Source of the DNA: an uncultured Gammaproteobacteria bacterium
GTDB taxonomy: Bacteria; Pseudomonadota; Gammaproteobacteria; Eutrophobiales; Eutrophobiaceae
DNA length: 64,000 nt
NCBI GenBank assembly: GCA_938084745.1
Contig: CALKEZ010000022.1
Location: 24,140-88,139, forward strand
Direction of reading: 5' to 3'
Shown here: positions 53,900-64,000 of the stretch, one piece after another
Layout of the letters: every line of letters begins with the position of its first letter
Numbering within the stretch: the stretch's first letter is position 1
Program-made: the position numbers and the translations under genes
The notes under the pieces: model-generated
Seen by the model: only the letters and a program-made list of their open reading frames with translations
What the model was told of the DNA's origin: nothing
The model's database searches: none

Positions 53900-54023
53900 G
53901 GATAAAATCAGCACAAGTTTGCACAGGACTTGTGAAGATCGTCACAGTTAATCGTTACAGAATAAATACGTTGTTCTTTTAACGTATACTTTGCGGTCAA
54001 GATTTATACTAGTGAGAGAGACC

Positions 54024-54578
54024 ATGATCAAACGTATTTTTATATTGATTAGCATAATCATACCGCTCCTATCAGCGTCCGTTTTCGCGGAAGATGATAA
54101 CTACGATAAAAACAGTATTATTAATGATGCCGCCGATTTCTTTGGTGAAGGCACGGAAGGCCTTGGCGAGGTAATTGAAAAGATATTCAAGCAACATGGC
54201 CGACCGAATGCAATTATTAAAGGTGAGGAAGCCAGTGGCGCGTTAGGTATCGGAGCACGTTATGGCAACGGTACGCTAACCATGAAAAAAGGAGGTTCCA
54301 CAACGGTTCACTGGACCGGACCTTCAATCGGGTTTGATGCCGGCGCAAATGCTTCCAAGGTATTCGTGCTTATCTACCATCTCCCCAATGCCGGTGCTTT
54401 ATTTCAACGCTTTCCAGCCGTTGACGGTAGTCTGTATTTCATCGGCGGTATTAGCGCCAACTATCATCAATCAGACAATATTATTCTCGCGCCGATGCGT
54501 TTAGGCGCTGGGTTAAGAGCCGGGGTCAATGTGGGTTATATGAAATACACCCGTAAAAAGACCTGGAATCCGTTTTGA
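54024..54578 (+). CDS. secreted DUF1134-like protein
   Basis: Signal peptide MIKRIFILISIIIPLLSASVFA. The motifs GEEASGALGIGARYGNGTL, GPSIGFDAG, FIGGISANY and the terminal WNPF match my memory of DUF1134. Confidence 0.65.
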   Translation: MIKRIFILISIIIPLLSASVFAEDDNYDKNSIINDAADFFGEGTEGLGEVIEKIFKQHGRPNAIIKGEEASGALGIGARYGNGTLTMKKGGSTTVHWTGPSIGFDAGANASKVFVLIYHLPNAGALFQRFPAVDGSLYFIGGISANYHQSDNIILAPMRLGAGLRAGVNVGYMKYTRKKTWNPF

Positions 54579-54698
54579 CTGCGGATAGTTTCAGTTAAAA
54601 CCCTCATTTTCCAAATTTGAGTCAAATTAATGCTTTTGTTTTTTAATGCGAATGCTTATCATTAACAAATTATAGGCTCTATCCGTAAAATTACTCAT

Positions 54699-55283
54699 AT
54701 GCACAAATTCAGCTTTTTAATCAGCCTGTCTCTCCTGCTTGGCCTGAGTCCTCAGACCTATAGCAGTGGCACCATGAATGAAGATGAAGCACGCAATGTC
54801 GACCGCGTTGATGTTTCAAGTGAAGCAGATCGACAACGCCTTTCTGTCACCGCGGGTTTATTAGCCGATTATGAGATCGCCGGAAAAAAATTAATTGCCA
54901 ACCTGAATGACGAAACATCAAAAGCGGAAGATGTCAGTAATCAGGCCAGTAATTTATTACATTTGTCTGAAGATATTATAAAGAGTGCTCAGTACAGACT
55001 GCCTCAGTGTGATGAATACCTGGCAAAGACCGTTGCAGTTAAAGCTGTTTTAAAAGATATGTCGCATGATGCCCTGGAAAAAGACTACCATCATGATGGT
55101 GCGCTTCCGAAAGCGCCGGGCGAGTGCTACCACACCAAAGACTTATTTGTTCATCCGGCAACCGTTATTATTTTAACGCGCGATGATCCTTCATTAAACA
55201 AGGCCACCAGAGCCTCGATAAACGCTGAAATAAGTGAAGTTCTGGCGCACACTGAAATAGTCAGACAGCTTGTGGTTTACTAA
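54699..55283 (+). CDS. hypothetical secreted helical protein
   Basis: Signal peptide MHKFSFLISLSLLLGLSPQTYS. There are two Cys residues and no recognised family. Confidence 0.5.
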   Translation: MHKFSFLISLSLLLGLSPQTYSSGTMNEDEARNVDRVDVSSEADRQRLSVTAGLLADYEIAGKKLIANLNDETSKAEDVSNQASNLLHLSEDIIKSAQYRLPQCDEYLAKTVAVKAVLKDMSHDALEKDYHHDGALPKAPGECYHTKDLFVHPATVIILTRDDPSLNKATRASINAEISEVLAHTEIVRQLVVY

Positions 55284-55598
55284 ATCGATGAATATAGAAT
55301 AAAAACACCTGCCAAATCCAGCCTCGAACACCACTACTGGAATAAATCGTCATTCCTGTTCATATGAGTATGAATGGAACAAGTCATTACTCAATATGTC
55401 ATAATAATCAAGTTATCAAGTGTTTAAAACCGGGGTTTAAAGACTTGATAAGCGACTATTAAATATCGTTTCAGAGCAACAAGCCTATCTGAATATTGAT
55501 AAGGTCTACATTGCCGTTAAAAATTTTAGAACTGATTTGCTGGTAAAAAATAGAGATAGCCGGCGGGTTTCTTCTTTCACAAGCTAGGGAAGTTATTG

Positions 55599-56279
55599 AT
55601 GACCGGACAGTTTCACAGTAATTGCAGTATAAAAATTATCTTTTTATCTTCATTGCTTGCTTTTCTAGCAGCGTGCAACACAGTGCCAACCAAAGAAAAT
55701 GACAAGAGTACTCCGGAACCTGATAAAAACGCCGCGACTGATTCAGCACCCGACACTCAAGACGCCTACACAAAAAATAGCAGCCAGGCTACGCCAACAA
55801 AAAATTCAGCACCAACCGAGCCTACTACAACAAACAATTCCTCCAGCCTGACTAGTGAAGAACAGACTCAGCAACTTGACCAGCAACTGGATGAGCGGTT
55901 TGCGGACTTTGATAGATTGTTGTTGCGCGAACATGAGTTTTTAAAAGAGCAGCAAAATGAACAAGGTGCGCCGCAAAGTGCGACTAGTGGTGGAGGCGGA
56001 GGTAGTGTTGGAAGTGGCCTTGATGGAATAGATGATTATGGCCCACTTGCCGATGAGGGCACGGCAGCAAATGGCGACCCGCCTGGCACTCAACAGAATG
56101 GTGGTGGAAATGCATTTCCAAGCGACAATACCAATATTAATATTCCTCCCGATCTGGTAAACAGTAAAGGTGATGATGTAATTGCAAGACAGTTACGTGA
56201 AGCTGCAATGAAAGAAAAAGATCCCGAACTCAGGGAAAAACTCTGGAATGAATATAGAAAATATAAAAGTGGTATATAG
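55599..56279 (+). CDS. lipoprotein, low-complexity linker plus a conserved-looking C-terminal helix; first gene of the 55.6-64 kb operon
   Basis: Lipobox LAFLAAC|NT, a T/S/P/N/G-rich middle, and the C-terminus DDVIARQLREAAMKEKDPELREKLWNEYRKYK. Confidence 0.6.
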   Translation: MTGQFHSNCSIKIIFLSSLLAFLAACNTVPTKENDKSTPEPDKNAATDSAPDTQDAYTKNSSQATPTKNSAPTEPTTTNNSSSLTSEEQTQQLDQQLDERFADFDRLLLREHEFLKEQQNEQGAPQSATSGGGGGSVGSGLDGIDDYGPLADEGTAANGDPPGTQQNGGGNAFPSDNTNINIPPDLVNSKGDDVIARQLREAAMKEKDPELREKLWNEYRKYKSGI

Positions 56280-56296: not shown

Positions 56297-57463
56297 ATGC
56301 AAAAAGTTAATAATATATTCGTCGTTGGCATAATTATATTTCTCACTGCTTGTAACTCAACCACGATCAGGAGTACGAATACAGACCCGGTACTTATTAC
56401 CGGCGCCGCTATTCCGGAAGCATTATTACTTGATGTCGGTATTAATATATTTGATCCCGATATTACGGACAGTAAAACTAAAGATATCAATGGTTATACA
56501 AAGATCATCGAAGCCGAAGCACGTTACATACCTTTTAAACTTATGGAAACGATTCAGGGCAGTGGCAATTGGGGCGTAGTTCGTCTCATCCCGGATAAAC
56601 AAAGTGAAATGGATGTTTGGGTCGACGGCAAGATCATTAAATCCGATGGCGCAAGCCTGGAGCTGGACATTACAGTGAGTGATTCCGGTAATAACAAATG
56701 GTATAGCAAACGTTACAAACAGGAAGCGAGCAAATACGCTTATGACAGTAACTCAAACAGGATCGAACCCTTTCAGAATTTATACGATCAGGTTGCCAAC
56801 GATATGTTGCAGTATTACAAGAAGCTGGATACTGACAAAATTACAAAAATTCGTACTATTACTAAATTACAATTTGCCAAACGCTTCTCTCCGGAAGCCT
56901 TTAGCGAATATATTGAAACGGACAATAAAGGTCGTTTATTCATTAAACGGTTACCGGCAAAAAACGACCCCCTGCTACAGCGTATAGAATCCATACGCGA
57001 ACGAGATCATTTGTTTGTTGATACCTTGCAGGAATATTACGCTAACTTTGCGCGGCAGATGGAAGAACCCTATCACGAGTGGCGTCGTGCTTATTACGAA
57101 GAAGGCGAGGCATTACGTGCAGTCAACAATCAGGCCGCTACCCGCCTGGTTGGTGGTGTAGTGGCCGTGTTAGCCGGCATACTTGCTCAGGGCAGCAGTT
57201 CCTCCGTTGCTCAAGCCGCGGGACAGGTCGGTATAATTGCAGGCGGTGCTGCAGTTGTTAGCGGATTTAATAAACGAGAGGAAGCCAAGATTCATAAAGA
57301 AGCGTTACAGGAAATTTCGGCCTCACTGGATGCGGAAATAAAACCACATACAGTTAATCTCGAAGAGCGCAGAGTTACCCTTACTGGTTCAGTTAATGAT
57401 CAATATACACAATGGCGTGAAGTGTTACGTGAGATATACAAGACTGAAACCGGTTCAATTTAA
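56297..57463 (+). CDS. lipoprotein with a C-terminal Gly/Ala-rich (glycine-zipper-like) hydrophobic segment
   Basis: Lipobox IIFLTAC|NS. The hydrophobic segment is RLVGGVVAVLAGILAQGSSSSVAQAAGQVGIIAGGAAVVSGF. The gap to the upstream gene is 17 nt. Confidence 0.6.
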   Translation: MQKVNNIFVVGIIIFLTACNSTTIRSTNTDPVLITGAAIPEALLLDVGINIFDPDITDSKTKDINGYTKIIEAEARYIPFKLMETIQGSGNWGVVRLIPDKQSEMDVWVDGKIIKSDGASLELDITVSDSGNNKWYSKRYKQEASKYAYDSNSNRIEPFQNLYDQVANDMLQYYKKLDTDKITKIRTITKLQFAKRFSPEAFSEYIETDNKGRLFIKRLPAKNDPLLQRIESIRERDHLFVDTLQEYYANFARQMEEPYHEWRRAYYEEGEALRAVNNQAATRLVGGVVAVLAGILAQGSSSSVAQAAGQVGIIAGGAAVVSGFNKREEAKIHKEALQEISASLDAEIKPHTVNLEERRVTLTGSVNDQYTQWREVLREIYKTETGSI

Positions 57464-57480
57464 CGCTATCATGCATTGCT

Positions 57481-59046
57481 ATGCGCACGAAAAATGATTC
57501 CGAAGACGGTTTTAAGGAAATAAAAGCTGTTCCATTTAATCAGGATGGTGAAACGTCAGCAGCTGCGGTAAACGTAAACACTCTCAGGTATAAAACGCCG
57601 GGACTTATCTTTGGCCTTGCTGCGCTTTTAATCGGAATCATTGTTGTTGTCTTTTTTTTACCTGATTGGGTAAAGAAAAATAATTCTGCTGCATCAAAAA
57701 ACCTGCCGAAGAGTACTACGGTTAGTTCAATACCGTCTGTATCAGAACCCTCATCTTCAGCTCTGCCCTCCCCACCTGATACAGCAATTAAATCACCAGC
57801 CGAAGTAGCCCGTGATGTGGAGCTACGAAAAGAAGCACAAAACCATCTGCAAGATATCCTCGAAAAACAGAATACGCTTAAACAAAATAATGCCCAAATA
57901 TGGTCAGCTGAAAAATACGCCGCCGGACAGAACCATGCTGCCGAAGGTGATCAATTTTATAATCAACAGCAATTTTTACAGGCCAATACAGCCTATAAAA
58001 ACGCTCTGCTTATCTTTGATGATCTGGTTGACCAGATCGATATTCTCTACCATGAAAAGATTGAGCAAGGCCAACAGGCTCTCGACAGCGGTGAATCAAT
58101 GCAGGCGTTGAGTGCATTTGAAATGGCATCTTTATTTACGGACGAATCTCTTCTGGCGGCAAAGGGACTGCAACGTGCCCGGAAACTGGATGAGGTATTT
58201 ATGCATATTGAGCACGGCAATGAGGCACTGAACGAGGGTCGCTTAAACGATGCTAAAAATGCTTTTCAGGCGGCATTGGAACTGGATAATGAGACCAAAG
58301 TTGCCCGACAAAAACTTGAAGAGACTAATAATTTACTCGCTAACAATCAATTTAACGCACATATGACAGCAGGTTACGCTGCACTGGAGCAACAACGCTA
58401 TGGCACGGCCAGTAATGAATTTAAGCATGCCTTAAAAATTCAACCGGCGTCCACGTCTGCTAAAACAGCATTGCAACAAACCAAACATCAGGCAATAACA
58501 CTTGAGATTAGTAATACGTTGCAACAAGCTACGGATAATGAAAAAAATGAGCAATGGCAAAAAGCAATTGAACTGTATGACTATGCACTGAAACTTGAGA
58601 ACAACCTTACCCAGGCACAAATCGGGAAACAGCGTGCACAACGCCAATTATTGACTAGGCAGAAACTAGACCAGATATTGTCACAACCAGAAAGACTAAG
58701 TAATAAAAATATACATGCCGAGGCAACTGCCTATTACACGAATACCATTAAACTTGATAATCAAGGCCCCATACTTACCAAACAGCTCAATGAACTTAAA
58801 ACATTACTGGAAGTAAGTGCAACACCGGTAACGATACGACTTGAGTCAGACAATGCGACTAATGTCACCATCTATAAGGTCGGCAAGATGGGGCTCTTTA
58901 AATCAACAGAATTGAGTTTACGGCCGGGGAAGTATGTTGCCGTTGGCAAACGCGATGGTTATAGAGACATCCGTGTTGAATTTCTAGTATCACAAAACAC
59001 AATGGAAACGGTTATACGAATCGCTGCCAATGAAAAAATTAACTAG
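57481..59046 (+). CDS. bitopic protein: short cytoplasmic N-terminus, TM helix, long TPR-like helical region, C-terminal PEGA-like beta domain
   Basis: TM helix GLIFGLAALLIGIIVVVFFL. Repeated A/L/Q/N-rich helical pairs (e.g. NDAKNAFQAALELDNETKVARQKLEE). The C-terminus is VTIRLESDNATNVTIYKVG...LRPGKYVAVGKRDGYRDIRVEFLV. Confidence 0.62.
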   Translation: MRTKNDSEDGFKEIKAVPFNQDGETSAAAVNVNTLRYKTPGLIFGLAALLIGIIVVVFFLPDWVKKNNSAASKNLPKSTTVSSIPSVSEPSSSALPSPPDTAIKSPAEVARDVELRKEAQNHLQDILEKQNTLKQNNAQIWSAEKYAAGQNHAAEGDQFYNQQQFLQANTAYKNALLIFDDLVDQIDILYHEKIEQGQQALDSGESMQALSAFEMASLFTDESLLAAKGLQRARKLDEVFMHIEHGNEALNEGRLNDAKNAFQAALELDNETKVARQKLEETNNLLANNQFNAHMTAGYAALEQQRYGTASNEFKHALKIQPASTSAKTALQQTKHQAITLEISNTLQQATDNEKNEQWQKAIELYDYALKLENNLTQAQIGKQRAQRQLLTRQKLDQILSQPERLSNKNIHAEATAYYTNTIKLDNQGPILTKQLNELKTLLEVSATPVTIRLESDNATNVTIYKVGKMGLFKSTELSLRPGKYVAVGKRDGYRDIRVEFLVSQNTMETVIRIAANEKIN

Positions 59047-59060
59047 CTTTATTTCATCTT

Positions 59061-61103
59061 ATGCAACATATTGAACCTGTCAATTTTGAGCCTCCCGGTC
59101 CCCATAAAAAAATTGCTAGAAAATCTCGCTCCTTACTACTCACGGGCCCCCTGTTTTTTTTATTTATTTTACTGGTGGGTATAACCGGATTCCTGTTCAC
59201 GAGTAAATCAGTAACCATTATTACTCAACCGGCTAATGCCGAGATCGCAATAAACACATTACTGAAACTTACCTTTTCAGAGCGCCACTTGCTAAGAAAA
59301 GGAAACTATGAAATTGACGTTAATGCGCAGGGTTATTACCCTCTAAATGAAATATTAGAAGTCGGTGATAAACAAAACCAGGAAATAGCATATGTTCTGA
59401 AACCACTACCAGGACATATGCAAGTTGCTGTTGCCGATACCCAGGGTGAAGCAACCATTTTTCTGGATGGCGTTGAACAAGGTTTTGCCCCGATGAAACT
59501 TAACAATATCGAGGCCGGCTCGCATCGCATTACCATTGAAGCGGAACGTTATTTTCCATATGAACAGGAGATAGAAATTGAAGGGAAAGATACACTCCAG
59601 AATTTAAACGTGGAACTTGTTCCTGCCTGGGCAAAAATAGAATTTGATTCTGATCCTGCCGCAGCCGAGATTATCATTGATGATGAAGCGCTGGCAAAGA
59701 CGCCGTCAACAGTTGAGCTGTTGCAGGGCAAGCACAATGTCAGGGTTAAAAAATCCGGCTTTAAGGATTGGCAAAAAACCATTAATGTTATCGCTAGCCA
59801 AGCCCAAACCTATACCGATATTAAACTGAAGCCCGCCGATGCAACCCTGTACGTTGACTCTGAACCGGCCGGAGCCAATGTTACTGTCGATGGTAATTAT
59901 GCTGGTAAAACACCATTGGAAATTGCTATCAATCCAGGCAAAACAAGTTTGGTACGCCTCTATAAACAAGGCTACACCGCCAAGATCAGTAACGTTAAAT
60001 TGGCAGCCGGAGAAAACAAGCATCTGAACATAACAATGTCTTCTGAACTCGTTGACGTTGCTTTTAATCTTGTTCCTGCAGATGCAAGACTGTATATCAA
60101 TAATAAGCTCATGCAACTGTCGGGTAAAACTTTAGCGTTACCAACAACGCAACAATCTATTGCTGTGCGCAAAGAAGGTTACGTTGACTACCAAACAACC
60201 ATCACGCCCATAGAAGGTATTCCCCAACAGGTCAACGTAACGCTCAAGTCCCTGCAACAACAAAAGCTGGAAAATATTAAACCCGTAATTACGAGCAATG
60301 CCGGGCAACAATTAAAACTGTTTTACCCGTATGGATTTACTATGGGGGCTTCACGTCGCGAGCCTGGACGTAGAGCAAACGAGGCAATACAAACAGTTGA
60401 ATTGAAACGACCCTTCTATCTTGGTATCACTGAAGTCACAAATGATGAGTTTCGTTTATTCAAAGCCGAACACGATTCCGGTGTAATACAAGGCCATAGC
60501 ATGAACAATGGCAAACAACCTGTTGCTAATGTTAGCTGGGAAAGTGCCGCCGCTTACTGCAACTGGTTGAGTCGAAAAGATTCTTTGCAGCCGTTTTATA
60601 TGATCTCCAATAATAAGATTACCAGTATTGATGCAAGTGCTAATGGTTACCGCTTGCCCAGTGAAGCTGAATGGGCCTGGGCTGCCAGGAGCACTAATAA
60701 AACTGATTTATTAAAATTTCCGTGGGGAGATAAACTGCCACCAACTAAAAAAAGTGGTAATTACGCCGACAGTAGTGCCGCCGGATTTTTAGGGAAAACT
60801 ATTAGCAACTATAATGATGGATATGCTGTTGCAGCACCTGTAGCCAGCTTCGCCGCTAATCACCATGGACTCTATGACATGGGTGGAAACGTTGCAGAAT
60901 GGGTGCATGACTATTACTCTGTACAATCAATTCGCGATGAAAAAAGGGTCGATCCACTTGGGCCTGTCAAAGGAGAATTTCATGTTATCCGCGGTGCTTC
61001 ATGGGCTCATGGTACTATTACAGAATTACGCTTATCGTATAGAGACTACACTGACAAACCCCGGGAAGATGTCGGTTTTCGTATTGCCCGATATCTGGAA
61101 TAA
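59061..61103 (+). CDS. bitopic PEGA-repeat protein with a C-terminal FGE/SUMF1-like domain lacking the catalytic Cys pair
   Basis: TM helix LLLTGPLFFLFILLVGITGFLF. About five PEGA-type repeats (e.g. SEPAGANVTVDGNYAGKTPLE, SDPAAAEIIIDDEALAKTPST). FGE-like region: YRLPSEAEWAWAAR, GNVAEWVHD and VIRGASWAHGTITELRLSYRDY. Confidence 0.8.
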   Translation: MQHIEPVNFEPPGPHKKIARKSRSLLLTGPLFFLFILLVGITGFLFTSKSVTIITQPANAEIAINTLLKLTFSERHLLRKGNYEIDVNAQGYYPLNEILEVGDKQNQEIAYVLKPLPGHMQVAVADTQGEATIFLDGVEQGFAPMKLNNIEAGSHRITIEAERYFPYEQEIEIEGKDTLQNLNVELVPAWAKIEFDSDPAAAEIIIDDEALAKTPSTVELLQGKHNVRVKKSGFKDWQKTINVIASQAQTYTDIKLKPADATLYVDSEPAGANVTVDGNYAGKTPLEIAINPGKTSLVRLYKQGYTAKISNVKLAAGENKHLNITMSSELVDVAFNLVPADARLYINNKLMQLSGKTLALPTTQQSIAVRKEGYVDYQTTITPIEGIPQQVNVTLKSLQQQKLENIKPVITSNAGQQLKLFYPYGFTMGASRREPGRRANEAIQTVELKRPFYLGITEVTNDEFRLFKAEHDSGVIQGHSMNNGKQPVANVSWESAAAYCNWLSRKDSLQPFYMISNNKITSIDASANGYRLPSEAEWAWAARSTNKTDLLKFPWGDKLPPTKKSGNYADSSAAGFLGKTISNYNDGYAVAAPVASFAANHHGLYDMGGNVAEWVHDYYSVQSIRDEKRVDPLGPVKGEFHVIRGASWAHGTITELRLSYRDYTDKPREDVGFRIARYLE

Positions 61104-61120: not shown

Positions 61121-61336
61121 ATGAATAGAACGCTTTTATTTTTATTATTATTTATCTCTAGCTTTGCAATGGCAGAACAAGACGTTGAAGAAGACACCAT
61201 GACAAGTAATGAACAGCAAGCGGAAACAGCAACGACCACTTCATCGACACCAGCAACGGTGAAAACGCCGGACTCATTCGACCCGACTGAAACCCTTTCT
61301 CAGGACGTGCCCGCTGCCTTCCCTGTAGACATATAA
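61121..61336 (+). CDS. small secreted acidic/Thr-rich protein
   Basis: 71 aa with signal peptide MNRTLLFLLLFISSFAMA. It sits between the FGE-like and MotA-like genes, with gaps of 17 and 12 nt. Confidence 0.5.
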   Translation: MNRTLLFLLLFISSFAMAEQDVEEDTMTSNEQQAETATTTSSTPATVKTPDSFDPTETLSQDVPAAFPVDI

Positions 61337-61348
61337 CGATATACCCAT

Positions 61349-62149
61349 ATGAATAAACACAACCCACTGTCTGATTTTCTATATCAAGTAATCGCTTTAT
61401 TTGTGGCATTGATTATTGTGCACAGTCTTTATGTTGCAGTGATTCGTCCCAATGCTGATGCTTTACTGGAACAGCAGGCCACTCAGCAAGCGGCCGGGGA
61501 AACTTATGAAATTGAACGTTCCATGTATATTGTCCTTAAAGACTTTGAACAAGAAGCCTGTTTTATTCTGGCATTATGGGTATTTGCGATCATGGCACTG
61601 AAGGCCAAAAAAATACTGAGAGAACGCGCATTACTATCACAGACTTTAATTAATATAAGTCCAGGTACCAGCCTTTTGCCGGAAGATACACGCGAATACT
61701 CGAGGCCGATACAAAACCTGGCGGAAAATGAACAAGAGTACCTGTTACCCCGAGCCTTACTTTCGGGTTTGCAGCGCTTCGGCTCGACCCAGAACATTCA
61801 GGATGTCGCCACGACGATTAAAGATATTTGTGAACACGAATCCGAGCGCCTCGATTCAGAACTGTCGATGGTTCGATATATCATATGGGCCATACCCTCT
61901 ATCGGCTTTATTGGTACTGTCCGCGGTATAGGAGAAGCACTGGGCCAGGCACACCGGGCCGTTGAAGGTGATATCCTGGGCGTCACATTGAGTTTGGGTG
62001 TTGCGTTTAATTCAACATTTGTCGCGTTGATCATCAGTATTTTTATTATGTTCTTAATGCATCAATTGCAACTATTGCAAGAAAGACTGGTGCTCGATAC
62101 GCAGCGCTATTGTGATATGAATCTGCTTCGTCATCTTAAAACGCTGTAA
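61349..62149 (+). CDS. MotA/TolQ/ExbB-family proton-channel protein
   Basis: An N-terminal TM helix, a cytoplasmic helical region, then the family signature region IWAIPSIGFIGTVRGIGEALG and a further TM helix FVALIISIFIMFLMH. Confidence 0.8.
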   Translation: MNKHNPLSDFLYQVIALFVALIIVHSLYVAVIRPNADALLEQQATQQAAGETYEIERSMYIVLKDFEQEACFILALWVFAIMALKAKKILRERALLSQTLINISPGTSLLPEDTREYSRPIQNLAENEQEYLLPRALLSGLQRFGSTQNIQDVATTIKDICEHESERLDSELSMVRYIIWAIPSIGFIGTVRGIGEALGQAHRAVEGDILGVTLSLGVAFNSTFVALIISIFIMFLMHQLQLLQERLVLDTQRYCDMNLLRHLKTL

Positions 62150-62164
62150 AGAATTTTCTGAATT

Positions 62165-63457
62165 ATGTCATTTACTATTCTTGATCTTAATGACACGAAT
62201 ATCCGAGTCGGTAGCGGTAGCCAAATACTGCTCAATAGTCCCGGTTATGCCGTCATTAAAGATAACAAGATCGCCTTTGGTGAACCGGCGGCGAAACTAA
62301 CACGCATTTATCCACGCAGTACGCATGATGATTTTTGGTATCGCCTTGGTCAGGAGAGCATCCAATCCATATCCAGCCAAATTCGACATAATGCCGACCT
62401 GGCTTATATGCAATTGGCCGAAATTTATGAACAAACCGGAAAACCATCCAGTTGGTTGATCGCGGTACCATCAAGCTTCACGCAGGAACAACTGGGGTTA
62501 CTGCTGGGACTTTTAAAAGCAGCGTCTTTTCAGGACGTTAAACTTATCGATAGCGCATTACTCGCATCAACCCATGCCTTAAGTGAAGGTGAGTATTTGC
62601 ATCTGGATATACAGTTACACCAATCTGTACTCACACGTCTTGAAAGTGGTAACAAGCATAAAGTAATTTCAACAGAGGTGTTGCCAGATGTTGGAATACT
62701 GAATATATATGAACATTGTGCAAAATTGATCAGTCATGAATTTATTAATCAATCACGCTTTGACCCACATCACAATGCGGAAACGGAACAACTACTCTTC
62801 GACAAAATACCCGACTGCCTGAAAAAGCTAACGCACTCCTCGATAAGTAAAGTTGATATCCAGTACCACGCACAATCTCATAGTGCCAACATCAGTCGCG
62901 AAGCAATACTGGAAAAAATATCACCACTTTATGACATTATTTATAAAACTATTGCTGATTCTGACCAATTATTATTAAGTCATCGTTTTACTAATTTGCC
63001 TGAATTTTCTGATCGTGTTAGCAATACCAATATACTTGATGAATTTGCCTTGTTCACATCGGCTAAAGACTATAGTCATTTTTTACGTGACACGGAACCT
63101 GATGCAAATTATTTATCTGAATTACCCTCGTTAGCAACAGCAGAAAAACCGGTATCTTTTGCTTTAGAAAATACTGAACAAACAGATATCACCCATATCT
63201 TGATCGATAATACGGCCCACTTACTCGATGGACATGATTGTTTTTTTACCGCCGGGCACACTATTGAAAAAGCGCTAAGCGAGAATAGCCATTACTCTGT
63301 TCATTTCAGTAACGGTTACTATTGTATACAACCGGAAAATAATGCCCGCGTATCTCTAAACGACGAAGTCATTAAGCAACGGGTACAGCTCAGTATAGGA
63401 GACAGAATAAAAACAACAGCTACCAAGACCTATTCAACCTTGATCAAGGTGAAATAA
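62165..63457 (+). CDS. cytoplasmic Hsp70/actin-fold (DnaK NBD-like) protein with a possible degenerate FHA-like C-terminus
   Basis: ILDLNDTNIRVG...IAFGEPAAKLTRIYPRSTHDDFWYRLG parallels the DnaK GIDLGTTNS...LVGQPAKRQAVTNPQNT...KRLIG. LIAVPSSFTQEQLGLLLGLLKAASFQDVKLIDSALLAS parallels [37 protein letters not shown]. The C-terminus is YCIQPENNARVSLNDEVI...LSIGDRI. Confidence 0.55.
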   Translation: MSFTILDLNDTNIRVGSGSQILLNSPGYAVIKDNKIAFGEPAAKLTRIYPRSTHDDFWYRLGQESIQSISSQIRHNADLAYMQLAEIYEQTGKPSSWLIAVPSSFTQEQLGLLLGLLKAASFQDVKLIDSALLASTHALSEGEYLHLDIQLHQSVLTRLESGNKHKVISTEVLPDVGILNIYEHCAKLISHEFINQSRFDPHHNAETEQLLFDKIPDCLKKLTHSSISKVDIQYHAQSHSANISREAILEKISPLYDIIYKTIADSDQLLLSHRFTNLPEFSDRVSNTNILDEFALFTSAKDYSHFLRDTEPDANYLSELPSLATAEKPVSFALENTEQTDITHILIDNTAHLLDGHDCFFTAGHTIEKALSENSHYSVHFSNGYYCIQPENNARVSLNDEVIKQRVQLSIGDRIKTTATKTYSTLIKVK

Positions 63458-63460
63458 AAA

Positions 63461-64000
63461 ATGGCCCGCAACCGGCGCCAACTTACGCCGTTTAGTCTGT
63501 CATTTCTGGATATTATGTCGTGTGGTTTTGGTGCTGCAGTATTGTTGTTTCTAATCATCAAGCACAATATCGATAGTGGTGTACCATCGCCACAAAATAC
63601 TCGCAGCCCGGACCTTCAATCTGAAATATCATTGCTGGAGGATGAAATAAAATCAGGCGAAAAAAATCTTGTTGAAATAAAAAATACTGTCGATGAAATT
63701 GAGCAAGAGATCGTCATCACTCAGGGGCTTGCCCGAAAAGTCACTGAGGAAATAGAAGAGCTCAATGGGCGTCAAAATGAATTAAAGGCAAGCAGTGACG
63801 ACTCGGAACTTGCTGCCCTCAAGAATGAACTCATCAGACTTGAACAACAGAAAAATATCCTCGCAAAAAAACTGGATGAACGCGGTGAGGCATCGCGCAG
63901 GTTCGCGGGAGATGGTGACCGCGCCTATGTCACCGGATTGAAAATGAACGGCAAACGCTTATTGGTATTGGTCGACAGCTCTGCCAGCATGCTCGATGAA
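63461..64000 (+). CDS. ExbD/TolR-like TM helix + coiled coil + vWA domain protein (3' end beyond the window)
   Basis: Own translation: MARNRRQLTPFSLSFLDIMSCGFGAAVLLFLII..., then about 110 aa of E/K/L-rich heptads, then GKRLLVLVDSSASMLDE (the vWA beta1 strand plus a DxSxS MIDAS motif). There is no stop before position 64000. Confidence 0.65.
   Translation, partial: MARNRRQLTPFSLSFLDIMSCGFGAAVLLFLIIKHNIDSGVPSPQNTRSPDLQSEISLLEDEIKSGEKNLVEIKNTVDEIEQEIVITQGLARKVTEEIEELNGRQNELKASSDDSELAALKNELIRLEQQKNILAKKLDERGEASRRFAGDGDRAYVTGLKMNGKRLLVLVDSSASMLDE

Follow-up and report, generated by a model that had tools for sequence, protein, structure and literature searches.

A membrane-anchored von Willebrand A protein encoded near a MotA/TolQ-like gene in Gammaproteobacteria: a candidate inner subunit of an ion-driven motor

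The 5:2 ion-driven motors (MotAB, ExbBD, TolQR, GldLM and ZorAB), which bring inner-membrane energy to the outer envelope, are few in number, and with every output module newly found for them a further area of biology has opened. Could a protein that ends in an adhesion-type domain be one more such module? The question is raised by a stretch of 64,000 nucleotides from an uncultured gammaproteobacterium (assembly GCA_938084745.1, contig CALKEZ010000022.1, positions 24,140 to 88,139; hereafter the window), which ends inside a forward-strand gene, here called vWA1. The window holds the first 180 of its 364 codons (63461–64000), and the open reading frame (ORF) encodes a transmembrane (TM) helix, a coiled coil and a von Willebrand A (vWA) domain. 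We hold, with moderate confidence, that vWA1 is the B-type (ExbD/TolR/MotB-like) subunit of an ion-driven motor of the MotA/TolQ/ExbB family. If this is true, the inner subunit of the motor would itself be the force transducer and would end in an integrin-like metal-dependent adhesion site.

The frame 1 translation of 63461–64000 opens MARNRRQLTPFSLSFLDIMSCGFGAAVLLFLII / MARNRRQLTPFSLSFLDIMSCGFGAAVLLFLIIKHN and closes with KRLLVLVDSSASMLDE at the window edge, with no stop; the frame is open through the window end, and 555 nt of the gene lie past it. The ATG of vWA1 (63461) is separated by 3 nt from the TAA of the ORF at 62165–63457, and the gene before that one is a MotA_ExbB ORF at 61349–62149. 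These coordinates agree with a preliminary description of the window, which had placed the start 3 nt past an Hsp70-like gene and two genes past a MotA/ExbB-like gene. The full protein was taken from metagenome contigs that carry an identical 430-aa upstream neighbour (L001 11297–12391 and L003 1759–2853); it counts 364 aa, and residues 1–180 are identical to the window translation in both. From its N-terminus it consists of a basic tail, a single TM helix that bears Asp17, a heptad helix stretch of about 97 residues, and a vWA domain whose metal-ion-dependent adhesion site (MIDAS) is complete. The AlphaFold2 (AF2) model, based on 18 homologues, shows a helix at 15–35, long helices at 52–110 and 114–148, and an alpha/beta domain at 166–351. 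The succession of Asp-bearing TM helix, coiled coil and vWA/MIDAS domain had been proposed from the truncated gene, and AF2, Pfam VWA_2, Foldseek and the full ORF all agree with it.

Within the window the vWA domain begins at 63956–64000 (+) with its beta1 strand and the MIDAS motif DxSxS (D172-S-S174-A-S176 at 63974–63988), as seen by Pfam, AF2 and Foldseek. Continuation of the vWA fold past the window edge had been set beforehand as a test of the assignment, and the fold does continue. Pfam VWA_2 matches vWA1 at 27.3 bits (cutoff 27) and 18 of 18 homologues (best E 9.7e-9), the AF2 pLDDT is about 90 over residues 166–351, and Foldseek returns a probability of 1.0 to the vWA domains of ITIH1, BatB (3ibs, rank 6), CLCA1, CMG2/TEM8 and LapA. 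The MIDAS residues D172, S174, S176, T267 and D291 are at least 97% conserved, and the domain is a vWA domain with a complete predicted MIDAS metal site. A membrane-spanning protein of Vibrio fischeri (4rck, Foldseek rank 29) was considered as a relative and rejected, as it is not a sequence homologue. When the full-length profile was run against the PDB, no homologue with a solved structure was found, and ATP synthase subunit b surfaced as TM-plus-helix noise only. Pfam, NCBIfam and PADLOC scans matched no ExbD/TolR model and no defence-system model, and gave just coiled-coil noise (SMC, LmuB, JetC) besides the marginal VWA_2 match; a plasmid tblastn search gave no match.

Between membrane and vWA domain lie two heptad-repeat helices (residues 52–110 and 114–148; 63614–63904, +), recognized by AF2 and by their period-3.5 power as a coiled-coil stalk. 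For residues 52–110 this power is 1.51 against 0.21 ± 0.20 in shuffled sequences (p~0.0005, that is 0.05% of shuffles); for residues 114–148 p is about 0.045, and the register breaks between the two segments. Pfam and NCBIfam matches in this region are weak and of coiled-coil type only. The heptad stretch proposed earlier is therefore borne out by a periodicity above that of shuffled sequences, but its length is about 97 residues rather than 110. At its other end, past the window, vWA1 finishes in an Asp-Trp-Pro-COOH terminus (D362, W363, P364; L003 2842–2850) that is invariant in 80 species.

A paralogue, vWA2 (330 aa), starts ten bases past the vWA1 stop. It opens with MKKRRETDIFSLSFLDIITCGFGAIILLLVI, continues into a coiled coil and reaches a vWA domain with the motif IIFIIDTSGSM, in which D160, S162, S164 and D259 are retained. 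The two proteins share 29.5% identity (E 1e-13) and a common motif, [SA]FLD..xCGFGA. Locus comparisons throughout this study draw on a scan of one genome per species that found 500 relatives, of which the best 80 loci were used; vWA2 lies directly downstream of vWA1 in 80 of these 80. The family is large, with at least 2,210 clusters at 50% identity (E<=1e-3).

The segment that bears most directly on a motor function is the N-terminus. A basic tail (residues 1–12, MARNRRQLTPFS; 63461–63496, +), which is predicted to be cytoplasmic, precedes a single TM helix (residues 13–33, LSFLDIMSCGFGAAVLLFLII; 63497–63559, +), delimited by AF2 and conservation and here regarded as a candidate trans-pore helix. 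Residues 1–14 contain three K/R and zero D/E, the stretch past the helix is less basic, and the family consensus of the tail is MxRxRR; this positive-inside charge pattern makes an N-in, C-out orientation likely. Asp17 (GAT codon, 63509–63511, +), the third residue of the AF2 helix 15–35, is the candidate proton-relay residue. It is kept in 235 of the 236 family members with a complete N-terminus, spread over 50%-identity clusters, and stands five residues ahead of a G[FL]G motif. F15, L16, D17, C21, G22, G24 and L28 are invariant across both paralogue families. Furthermore, the TM helix is the best-conserved segment of each protein (0.88 against a protein mean of 0.56 in vWA1; 0.82 against 0.61 in vWA2), while the same-genome anchors of a TPR and a PEGA protein reach 0.41 and 0.29, at or below the means of their proteins. 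By inspection, residues 13–33 of vWA1 contain no SHLS pattern (S-x3-H-x6-L-x3-S).

The same N-terminus has features of a lipoprotein signal, namely a basic n-region, a hydrophobic stretch and a Cys that is invariant in close relatives (IMS|C), and the vWA proteins might then be lipoproteins cut before Cys21 by signal peptidase II and not TM proteins at all. We find this barely credible: twelve further hydrophobic residues follow the Cys and the Asp would fall inside the h-region, while many members have T, C or F at position -1 and distant ones lack the Cys, and on these last two observations a lipoprotein reading of Cys21 is rejected.

If vWA1 is a B-type subunit, what would be its motor? The ORF at 61349–62149 (+) encodes a 266-aa protein of the MotA/TolQ/ExbB family (PF01618, E 7.3e-14, 52 bits against a cutoff of 22.9), the presumed pentameric partner. 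Its family profile aligns without gaps to E. coli TolQ (8odt_A), so that T190 (GTVRGIG) falls on T145 and T223 (NST) on T178; both threonines are invariant. Threonines of the T145/T178 type in TolQ face the Asp of TolR, ExbD or MotB, and mutating either the Thr or the TolR Asp resembles tol deletion (PMC11970459). Conservation is highest in TM2 (0.91) and TM3 (0.83) and lower in TM1 (0.66). A single-sequence phmmer search of the PDB gave no match for this protein, TolQ being found only with the family profile. A phmmer search with E. coli ExbD and TolR as seeds, both checked against the PDB, found no ExbD/TolR homologue in the 64-kb window or within 10 kb in the 80 loci (14,096 ORFs), and the MotA-like motor is therefore without any other candidate inner subunit. 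A hidden TolR was considered for the 71-aa ORF just upstream of the MotA-like gene, but its product starts with a cleavable signal peptide and contains no Asp-bearing TM helix, and the idea was rejected.

In plan, vWA1 and ExbD/TolR (PF02472) are alike: both have a short basic N-tail, one TM helix and an Asp one turn from its cytoplasmic end (FLDIM in vWA1, FIDVM in ExbD, LLDVL in TolR), and both are encoded beside a MotA/TolQ/ExbB-family gene. They differ in the periplasmic part, which is a coiled coil and a vWA domain in vWA1 and an alpha/beta domain in ExbD/TolR. Moreover, ExbD/TolR form homodimers whereas a heterodimer of the two paralogues is expected for vWA1/vWA2, and here the motor and B-subunit genes are separated by one further gene.

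A protein type of this kind has been predicted. A computational study (PMC12204202; Mol Biol Evol 2025;42:msaf138) describes a "TPH-vWA" pair with an orphan TolQ, seeded from Idiomarina loihiensis. These proteins co-occur tightly with tolQ homologues, have no tolR or exbD gene with them, form mostly heterologous pairs and carry a conserved Asp in what is predicted to be a TolR/ExbD-like trans-pore helix; AlphaFold 3 models place the Asp pair in the Thr ring of a TolQ-like pentamer. They are distributed in Proteobacteria and Verrucomicrobia, and no phenotype is reported for such vWA force transducers. With the TPH-vWA proteins as described there, vWA1 has in common a TM-tethered vWA domain, tight synteny with a tolQ-like gene without tolR or exbD, the helix Asp, heterologous pairs, a Thr-bearing pentamer subunit, the lack of an SHLS motif and a proteobacterial host, and none of the present observations contradicts its membership. 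The coiled-coil stalk as such is present here and is not mentioned there; searches of the text likewise turned up no Hsp70-like or FHA gene, and the vWA section names no PEGA/FGE gene, small secreted protein or lipoproteins. The stator idea had thus already been published as a computational prediction, and the preliminary description of the window rediscovered it independently, while the wider 11-gene operon set out below appears to be undescribed.

Several points weigh against assigning vWA1 to the B-type subunits. Neither vWA1, nor its paralogue, nor any of 18 homologues matches PF02472 at E<=10. A 36-sequence N-terminal profile retrieved no ExbD, TolR, MotB, PomB or ZorB from the PDB at E<=10; it scored highest, at E 0.89, with NDUFB4, a match made by the CGFG motif. 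When hmmsearch was run locally and unfiltered, the helices of ExbD, TolR, MotB and ZorB (sequences verified against the PDB) scored -0.7 to -1.3 bits and ranked about 340–540 among the 14,096 ORFs, with ExbD at -1.3 bits and rank ~540. The best local alignment given by hhalign pairs FLDVM with FIDVM and brings the Asp into register with ExbD D25, TolR D23 and the MotB Asp, but its probability is 3.7–11.3% against ExbD/TolR/MotB, compared with 12.4% for a control, the anchor of the TPR protein. The CGFGA motif is specific to the family and has no counterpart in ExbD, TolR or MotB. Against the solved TolQ chain the MotA-like profile gives a weak match (E 0.078), while the protein's match in Pfam is solid; the topology of vWA1 is read from charge distribution alone. 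Finally, the protein type is known from computational prediction alone, and vWA1 is placed in the TPH-vWA/orphan-TolQ family, as a new member, by the features described for it and not by sequence; none of the best 80 loci comes from Idiomarina.

How heavily should the profile results count? Homology of the vWA1 helix to those of ExbD, TolR or MotB is not demonstrable by sequence, the similarity being indistinguishable from background, and membership of vWA1 in the Pfam ExbD family is rejected. A lack of profile support for the resemblance of the TM helix to ExbD/TolR had been named beforehand as a refuting outcome, and formally this is what was obtained: there is no PF02472 match, the hmmsearch scores are at background and hhalign does no better than with the control anchor. 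A helix of 20 residues carries little statistical power, however, and the ExbD/TolR alignment used in hhalign is shallow (3–6 PDB sequences); because of this lack of power, the failed profile comparison is only weak evidence against homology. The functional equivalence of vWA1 to an ExbD/TolR/MotB subunit has good indirect support, and the earlier proposal of a stator-type anchor keeps the near-invariant Asp, the conservation of the helix, the absence of an ExbD/TolR gene, the paralogue and the pore threonines on its side, and loses profile similarity.

The gene between those of the motor and of vWA1 (62165–63457, +) bears on two further alternatives. It encodes a 430-aa protein composed, according to AF2 and Foldseek, of an Hsp70-like nucleotide-binding domain (NBD) and a C-terminal FHA domain. 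The N-terminal 320 residues match no Pfam family. The AF2 model, run with database homologues, has a pLDDT of 89.8, and Foldseek aligns it to isolated NBDs of DnaK, BiP and Hsp70 at E 1e-16 to 6e-18 (TM-score ~0.67, root-mean-square deviation ~3.9 A). The C-terminal ~90 residues are an FHA domain (FHA domains of EssC, KIF13B and Ki-67 at E 0.005–0.07; PF00498 is recorded in many homologues), which stands in the place of the Hsp70 substrate-binding domain. Both Gly-rich phosphate loops of Hsp70, DLGTT and DLGGGTFD, are replaced, by [ED]LND and LDIQLHQ, and ATPase activity is for that reason doubtful; the protein may be a pseudo-ATPase. It has neither a signal peptide nor a TM helix and is presumably cytoplasmic.

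Such a neighbour recalls the pilMNOP operon, in which PilM holds PilN and PilP is a lipoprotein encoded downstream. Here, too, a gene for an Hsp70/actin-fold protein is followed by two for TM-coiled-coil paralogues and then by lipoprotein genes. It is accordingly conceivable, though we think it doubtful, that vWA1 and vWA2 form a PilN/PilO-like heterodimeric inner-membrane scaffold whose tails are held by the actin/Hsp70-fold protein as PilM holds PilN, with the Asp serving helix packing or a peripheral, TolA/TonB-like binding to the motor instead of a proton relay. The conserved N-tails would fit, as would the lack of detectable sequence homology to ExbD/TolR. However, a scaffold would leave the MotA-like protein without an Asp-bearing inner subunit, an invariant acidic residue is unusual for a scaffold TM helix, the helix has no SHLS/His motif of the TolA/TonB type, and both the vWA helix and TM2/TM3 of the MotA-like protein are very highly conserved.

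The adjacency of the Hsp70-like and vWA1 genes also suggests a cytoplasmic partnership, since vWA domains are co-chaperone partners of NTPases in many bacterial systems (PMC7159879). vWA1 would then be N-out, its vWA domain would work in the cytoplasm with the Hsp70-like ATPase as with MoxR-type partners, and the MotA-like protein would be functionally separate. This is quite unlikely in our estimation: the N-tails of both paralogues are strongly basic and their C-flanks acidic or neutral, lipoproteins and periplasmic modules abound in the cluster, neither Gly-rich phosphate loop survives in the Hsp70-like protein, and synteny with the MotA-like gene is near-universal. The vWA/Hsp70 conflict systems described in eLife 2020 (PMC7159879) were also considered and set aside as a different system with no MotA/TolQ component.

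If vWA1 is indeed the B-type subunit, its helix would pair with that of vWA2 and the two would be enclosed by five copies of the 266-aa MotA-like protein, so that the 5:2 stator would here take a 5:1:1 form. Asp17 of vWA1 and Asp16 of vWA2 would take up and release protons against the ring of T190 and T223, and this relay would drive a relative rotation of pentamer and helix pair, as in ExbBD, TolQR and MotAB. Beyond the membrane the two chains would continue together in a heterodimeric coiled coil of 59 + 35 helical residues (about 9 + 5 nm), that is, a stalk of up to ~14 nm when extended, with flexible linkers of 16–17 residues. This stalk, turned or pulled by the motor, would replace the small ExbD domain or the OmpA-like peptidoglycan anchor, and an acidic ligand in the envelope would be bound by the pair of vWA heads with their MIDAS sites. 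This ligand might be one of the co-encoded lipoproteins, the PEGA/FGE protein or the small 71-aa secreted acidic protein; that the acidic C-terminus of the last (FPVDI-COOH) is the MIDAS ligand is speculation. The Hsp70-NBD/FHA protein would probably regulate or anchor the complex from the cytoplasm.

Known systems offer parallels for parts of this scheme. MotB, PomB and ZorB also place an Asp-bearing helix inside an A-subunit pentamer and use a periplasmic extension to fix or transmit force, but, unlike vWA1, they carry a plug helix and an OmpA-like peptidoglycan-binding domain. The long coiled coil of Zorya belongs to the A subunit and is cytoplasmic, whereas here it is carried by the B-like subunit and is predicted to be periplasmic. 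In GldM/PorM, the inner dimeric subunit of a 5:2 motor extends as a long periplasmic shaft to lipoproteins near the outer membrane, much as proposed here, and an FGE-sulfatase-fold (GldK/PorK-like) protein is also encoded in this operon. There is nevertheless no sequence relation to GldLM: GldL lies outside PF01618, and the two systems have different charged residues and shaft domains. Like the SHLS-type vWA force transducers of PMC12204202, TolA and TonB are tethered in the inner membrane and carry motor energy across the periplasm, as would be the case here; they bind the pentamer from outside through an SHLS/His helix and need TolR/ExbD, whereas vWA1 has no SHLS motif and no TolR/ExbD is encoded nearby. 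BatA and BatB (e.g. PDB 3ibs) resemble vWA1 as bacterial vWA domains on a membrane anchor, but the Bat operon encodes a MoxR ATPase without a MotA-like protein, and neither the Asp motif nor the coiled coil occurs in the Bat anchors.

Which other proteins could such a motor act upon? The genes around vWA1 lie on one strand, in an order that is fixed in every locus long enough to show it: lipoprotein, lipoprotein, TPR, PEGA/FGE, small secreted protein, MotA/TolQ-like, Hsp70-NBD/FHA, vWA1, vWA2, lipoprotein, lipoprotein. The first two are a low-complexity lipoprotein of 227 aa with the lipobox LAAC (55596–56279, +; weak LPAM_1 match; 62/80 loci) and one of 388 aa, recognized by its sequence, with the lipobox LTAC (56297–57463, +; 65/80). 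They are followed by a TM-anchored TPR protein of 521 aa (57481–59046, +; TPR_2 8.6e-10; 67/80) and by a 680-aa protein with an N-terminal TM anchor, five PEGA domains and a GldK/PorK-like FGE-sulfatase domain (59061–61103, +; PEGA 1.8e-56, FGE-sulfatase 9.5e-44; 72/80). Next comes the small secreted acidic protein of 71 aa (61121–61336, +), with a signal peptide, an acidic, Thr-rich linker and a conserved C-terminus, ...TPDSFDPTExLSEDxxxxFPVDI-COOH. Between the PEGA/FGE and MotA-like genes, 72 of 72 loci have an ORF that ends in [FY]P[VITA]D[IM]-stop, although BLAST detects it in only 30. The MotA-like gene is present in 74 of the 80 loci, the remaining six being cut by contig ends and not reaching far enough upstream; in L036 an inserted restriction-modification-like gene occupies the remaining upstream flank. 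The Hsp70-like gene is found in 78 loci and vWA1, like vWA2, in all 80. Downstream of vWA2 follow lipoproteins of 208 aa (76/80) and 218 aa (75/80), and an M48 peptidase gene occurs at variable positions in 42 of the 80. Nearly all carriers are Gammaproteobacteria, mostly metagenome-assembled genomes, but cultured hosts exist (Elongatibacter sediminis and three Pseudomaricurvus species), and it is in these that the 2025 prediction could first be tested.

It is tempting, although we offer it tentatively and as less probable than not, to read the cluster of about 11 genes (55596 to past the window end) as one undescribed trans-envelope machine of marine and freshwater Gammaproteobacteria driven by the proton-motive force. 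The MotA-like pentamer would turn a heterodimeric, coiled-coil rotor tipped with MIDAS heads; the degenerate Hsp70-NBD/FHA protein would gate or anchor it from the cytoplasm; and in the periplasm the rotor would couple to the PEGA/FGE and TPR proteins, the four lipoproteins and the 71-aa protein, with FPVDI-COOH as the MIDAS ligand. In function such a machine would parallel GldLM-GldKN, and its output might be, for example, surface movement, secretion or envelope remodelling. Whatever its output, the conserved operon points to specific proteins that may be the motor's ligand, regulator and outer-membrane partners.

The four lipoboxes of the cluster, LAAC, LTAC, VTAC and MTAC (55596–56279, 56297–57463, L003 3852–4478 and L003 4491–5147), have N, N, G and N at position +2, which, by the E. 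coli Lol rule, suggests that the four lipoproteins are located in the outer membrane. The product of 59061–61103 resembles the GldK/PorK ring lipoprotein of the type IX secretion system (TIGR03525, 117 bits, far under the cutoff of 350), and this PEGA/FGE protein is kept in the operon (72 of 80 loci) of bacteria that are not known for such a system. Further upstream, at 53991–55283, an EipA-family gene (PF06577, E 9e-70) and the gene for a 194-aa secreted protein are syntenic in just 5–7 of the 80 loci, those of the closest relatives, and are outside the conserved cluster. Insertions of 0.9–4.7 kb interrupt the operon in eight loci (L032, L034, L036, L042, L047, L049, L050 and L060), between the PEGA/FGE and MotA-like genes or, in L036, upstream of the Hsp70-like gene. 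Judged by motif, the inserted genes resemble a HepT/MNT-type toxin-antitoxin pair, a Dam-like methyltransferase, a 969-aa restriction-modification-like enzyme and, in L049, an M48-peptidase-like fusion; the intergenic gaps of the operon appear to tolerate insertions.

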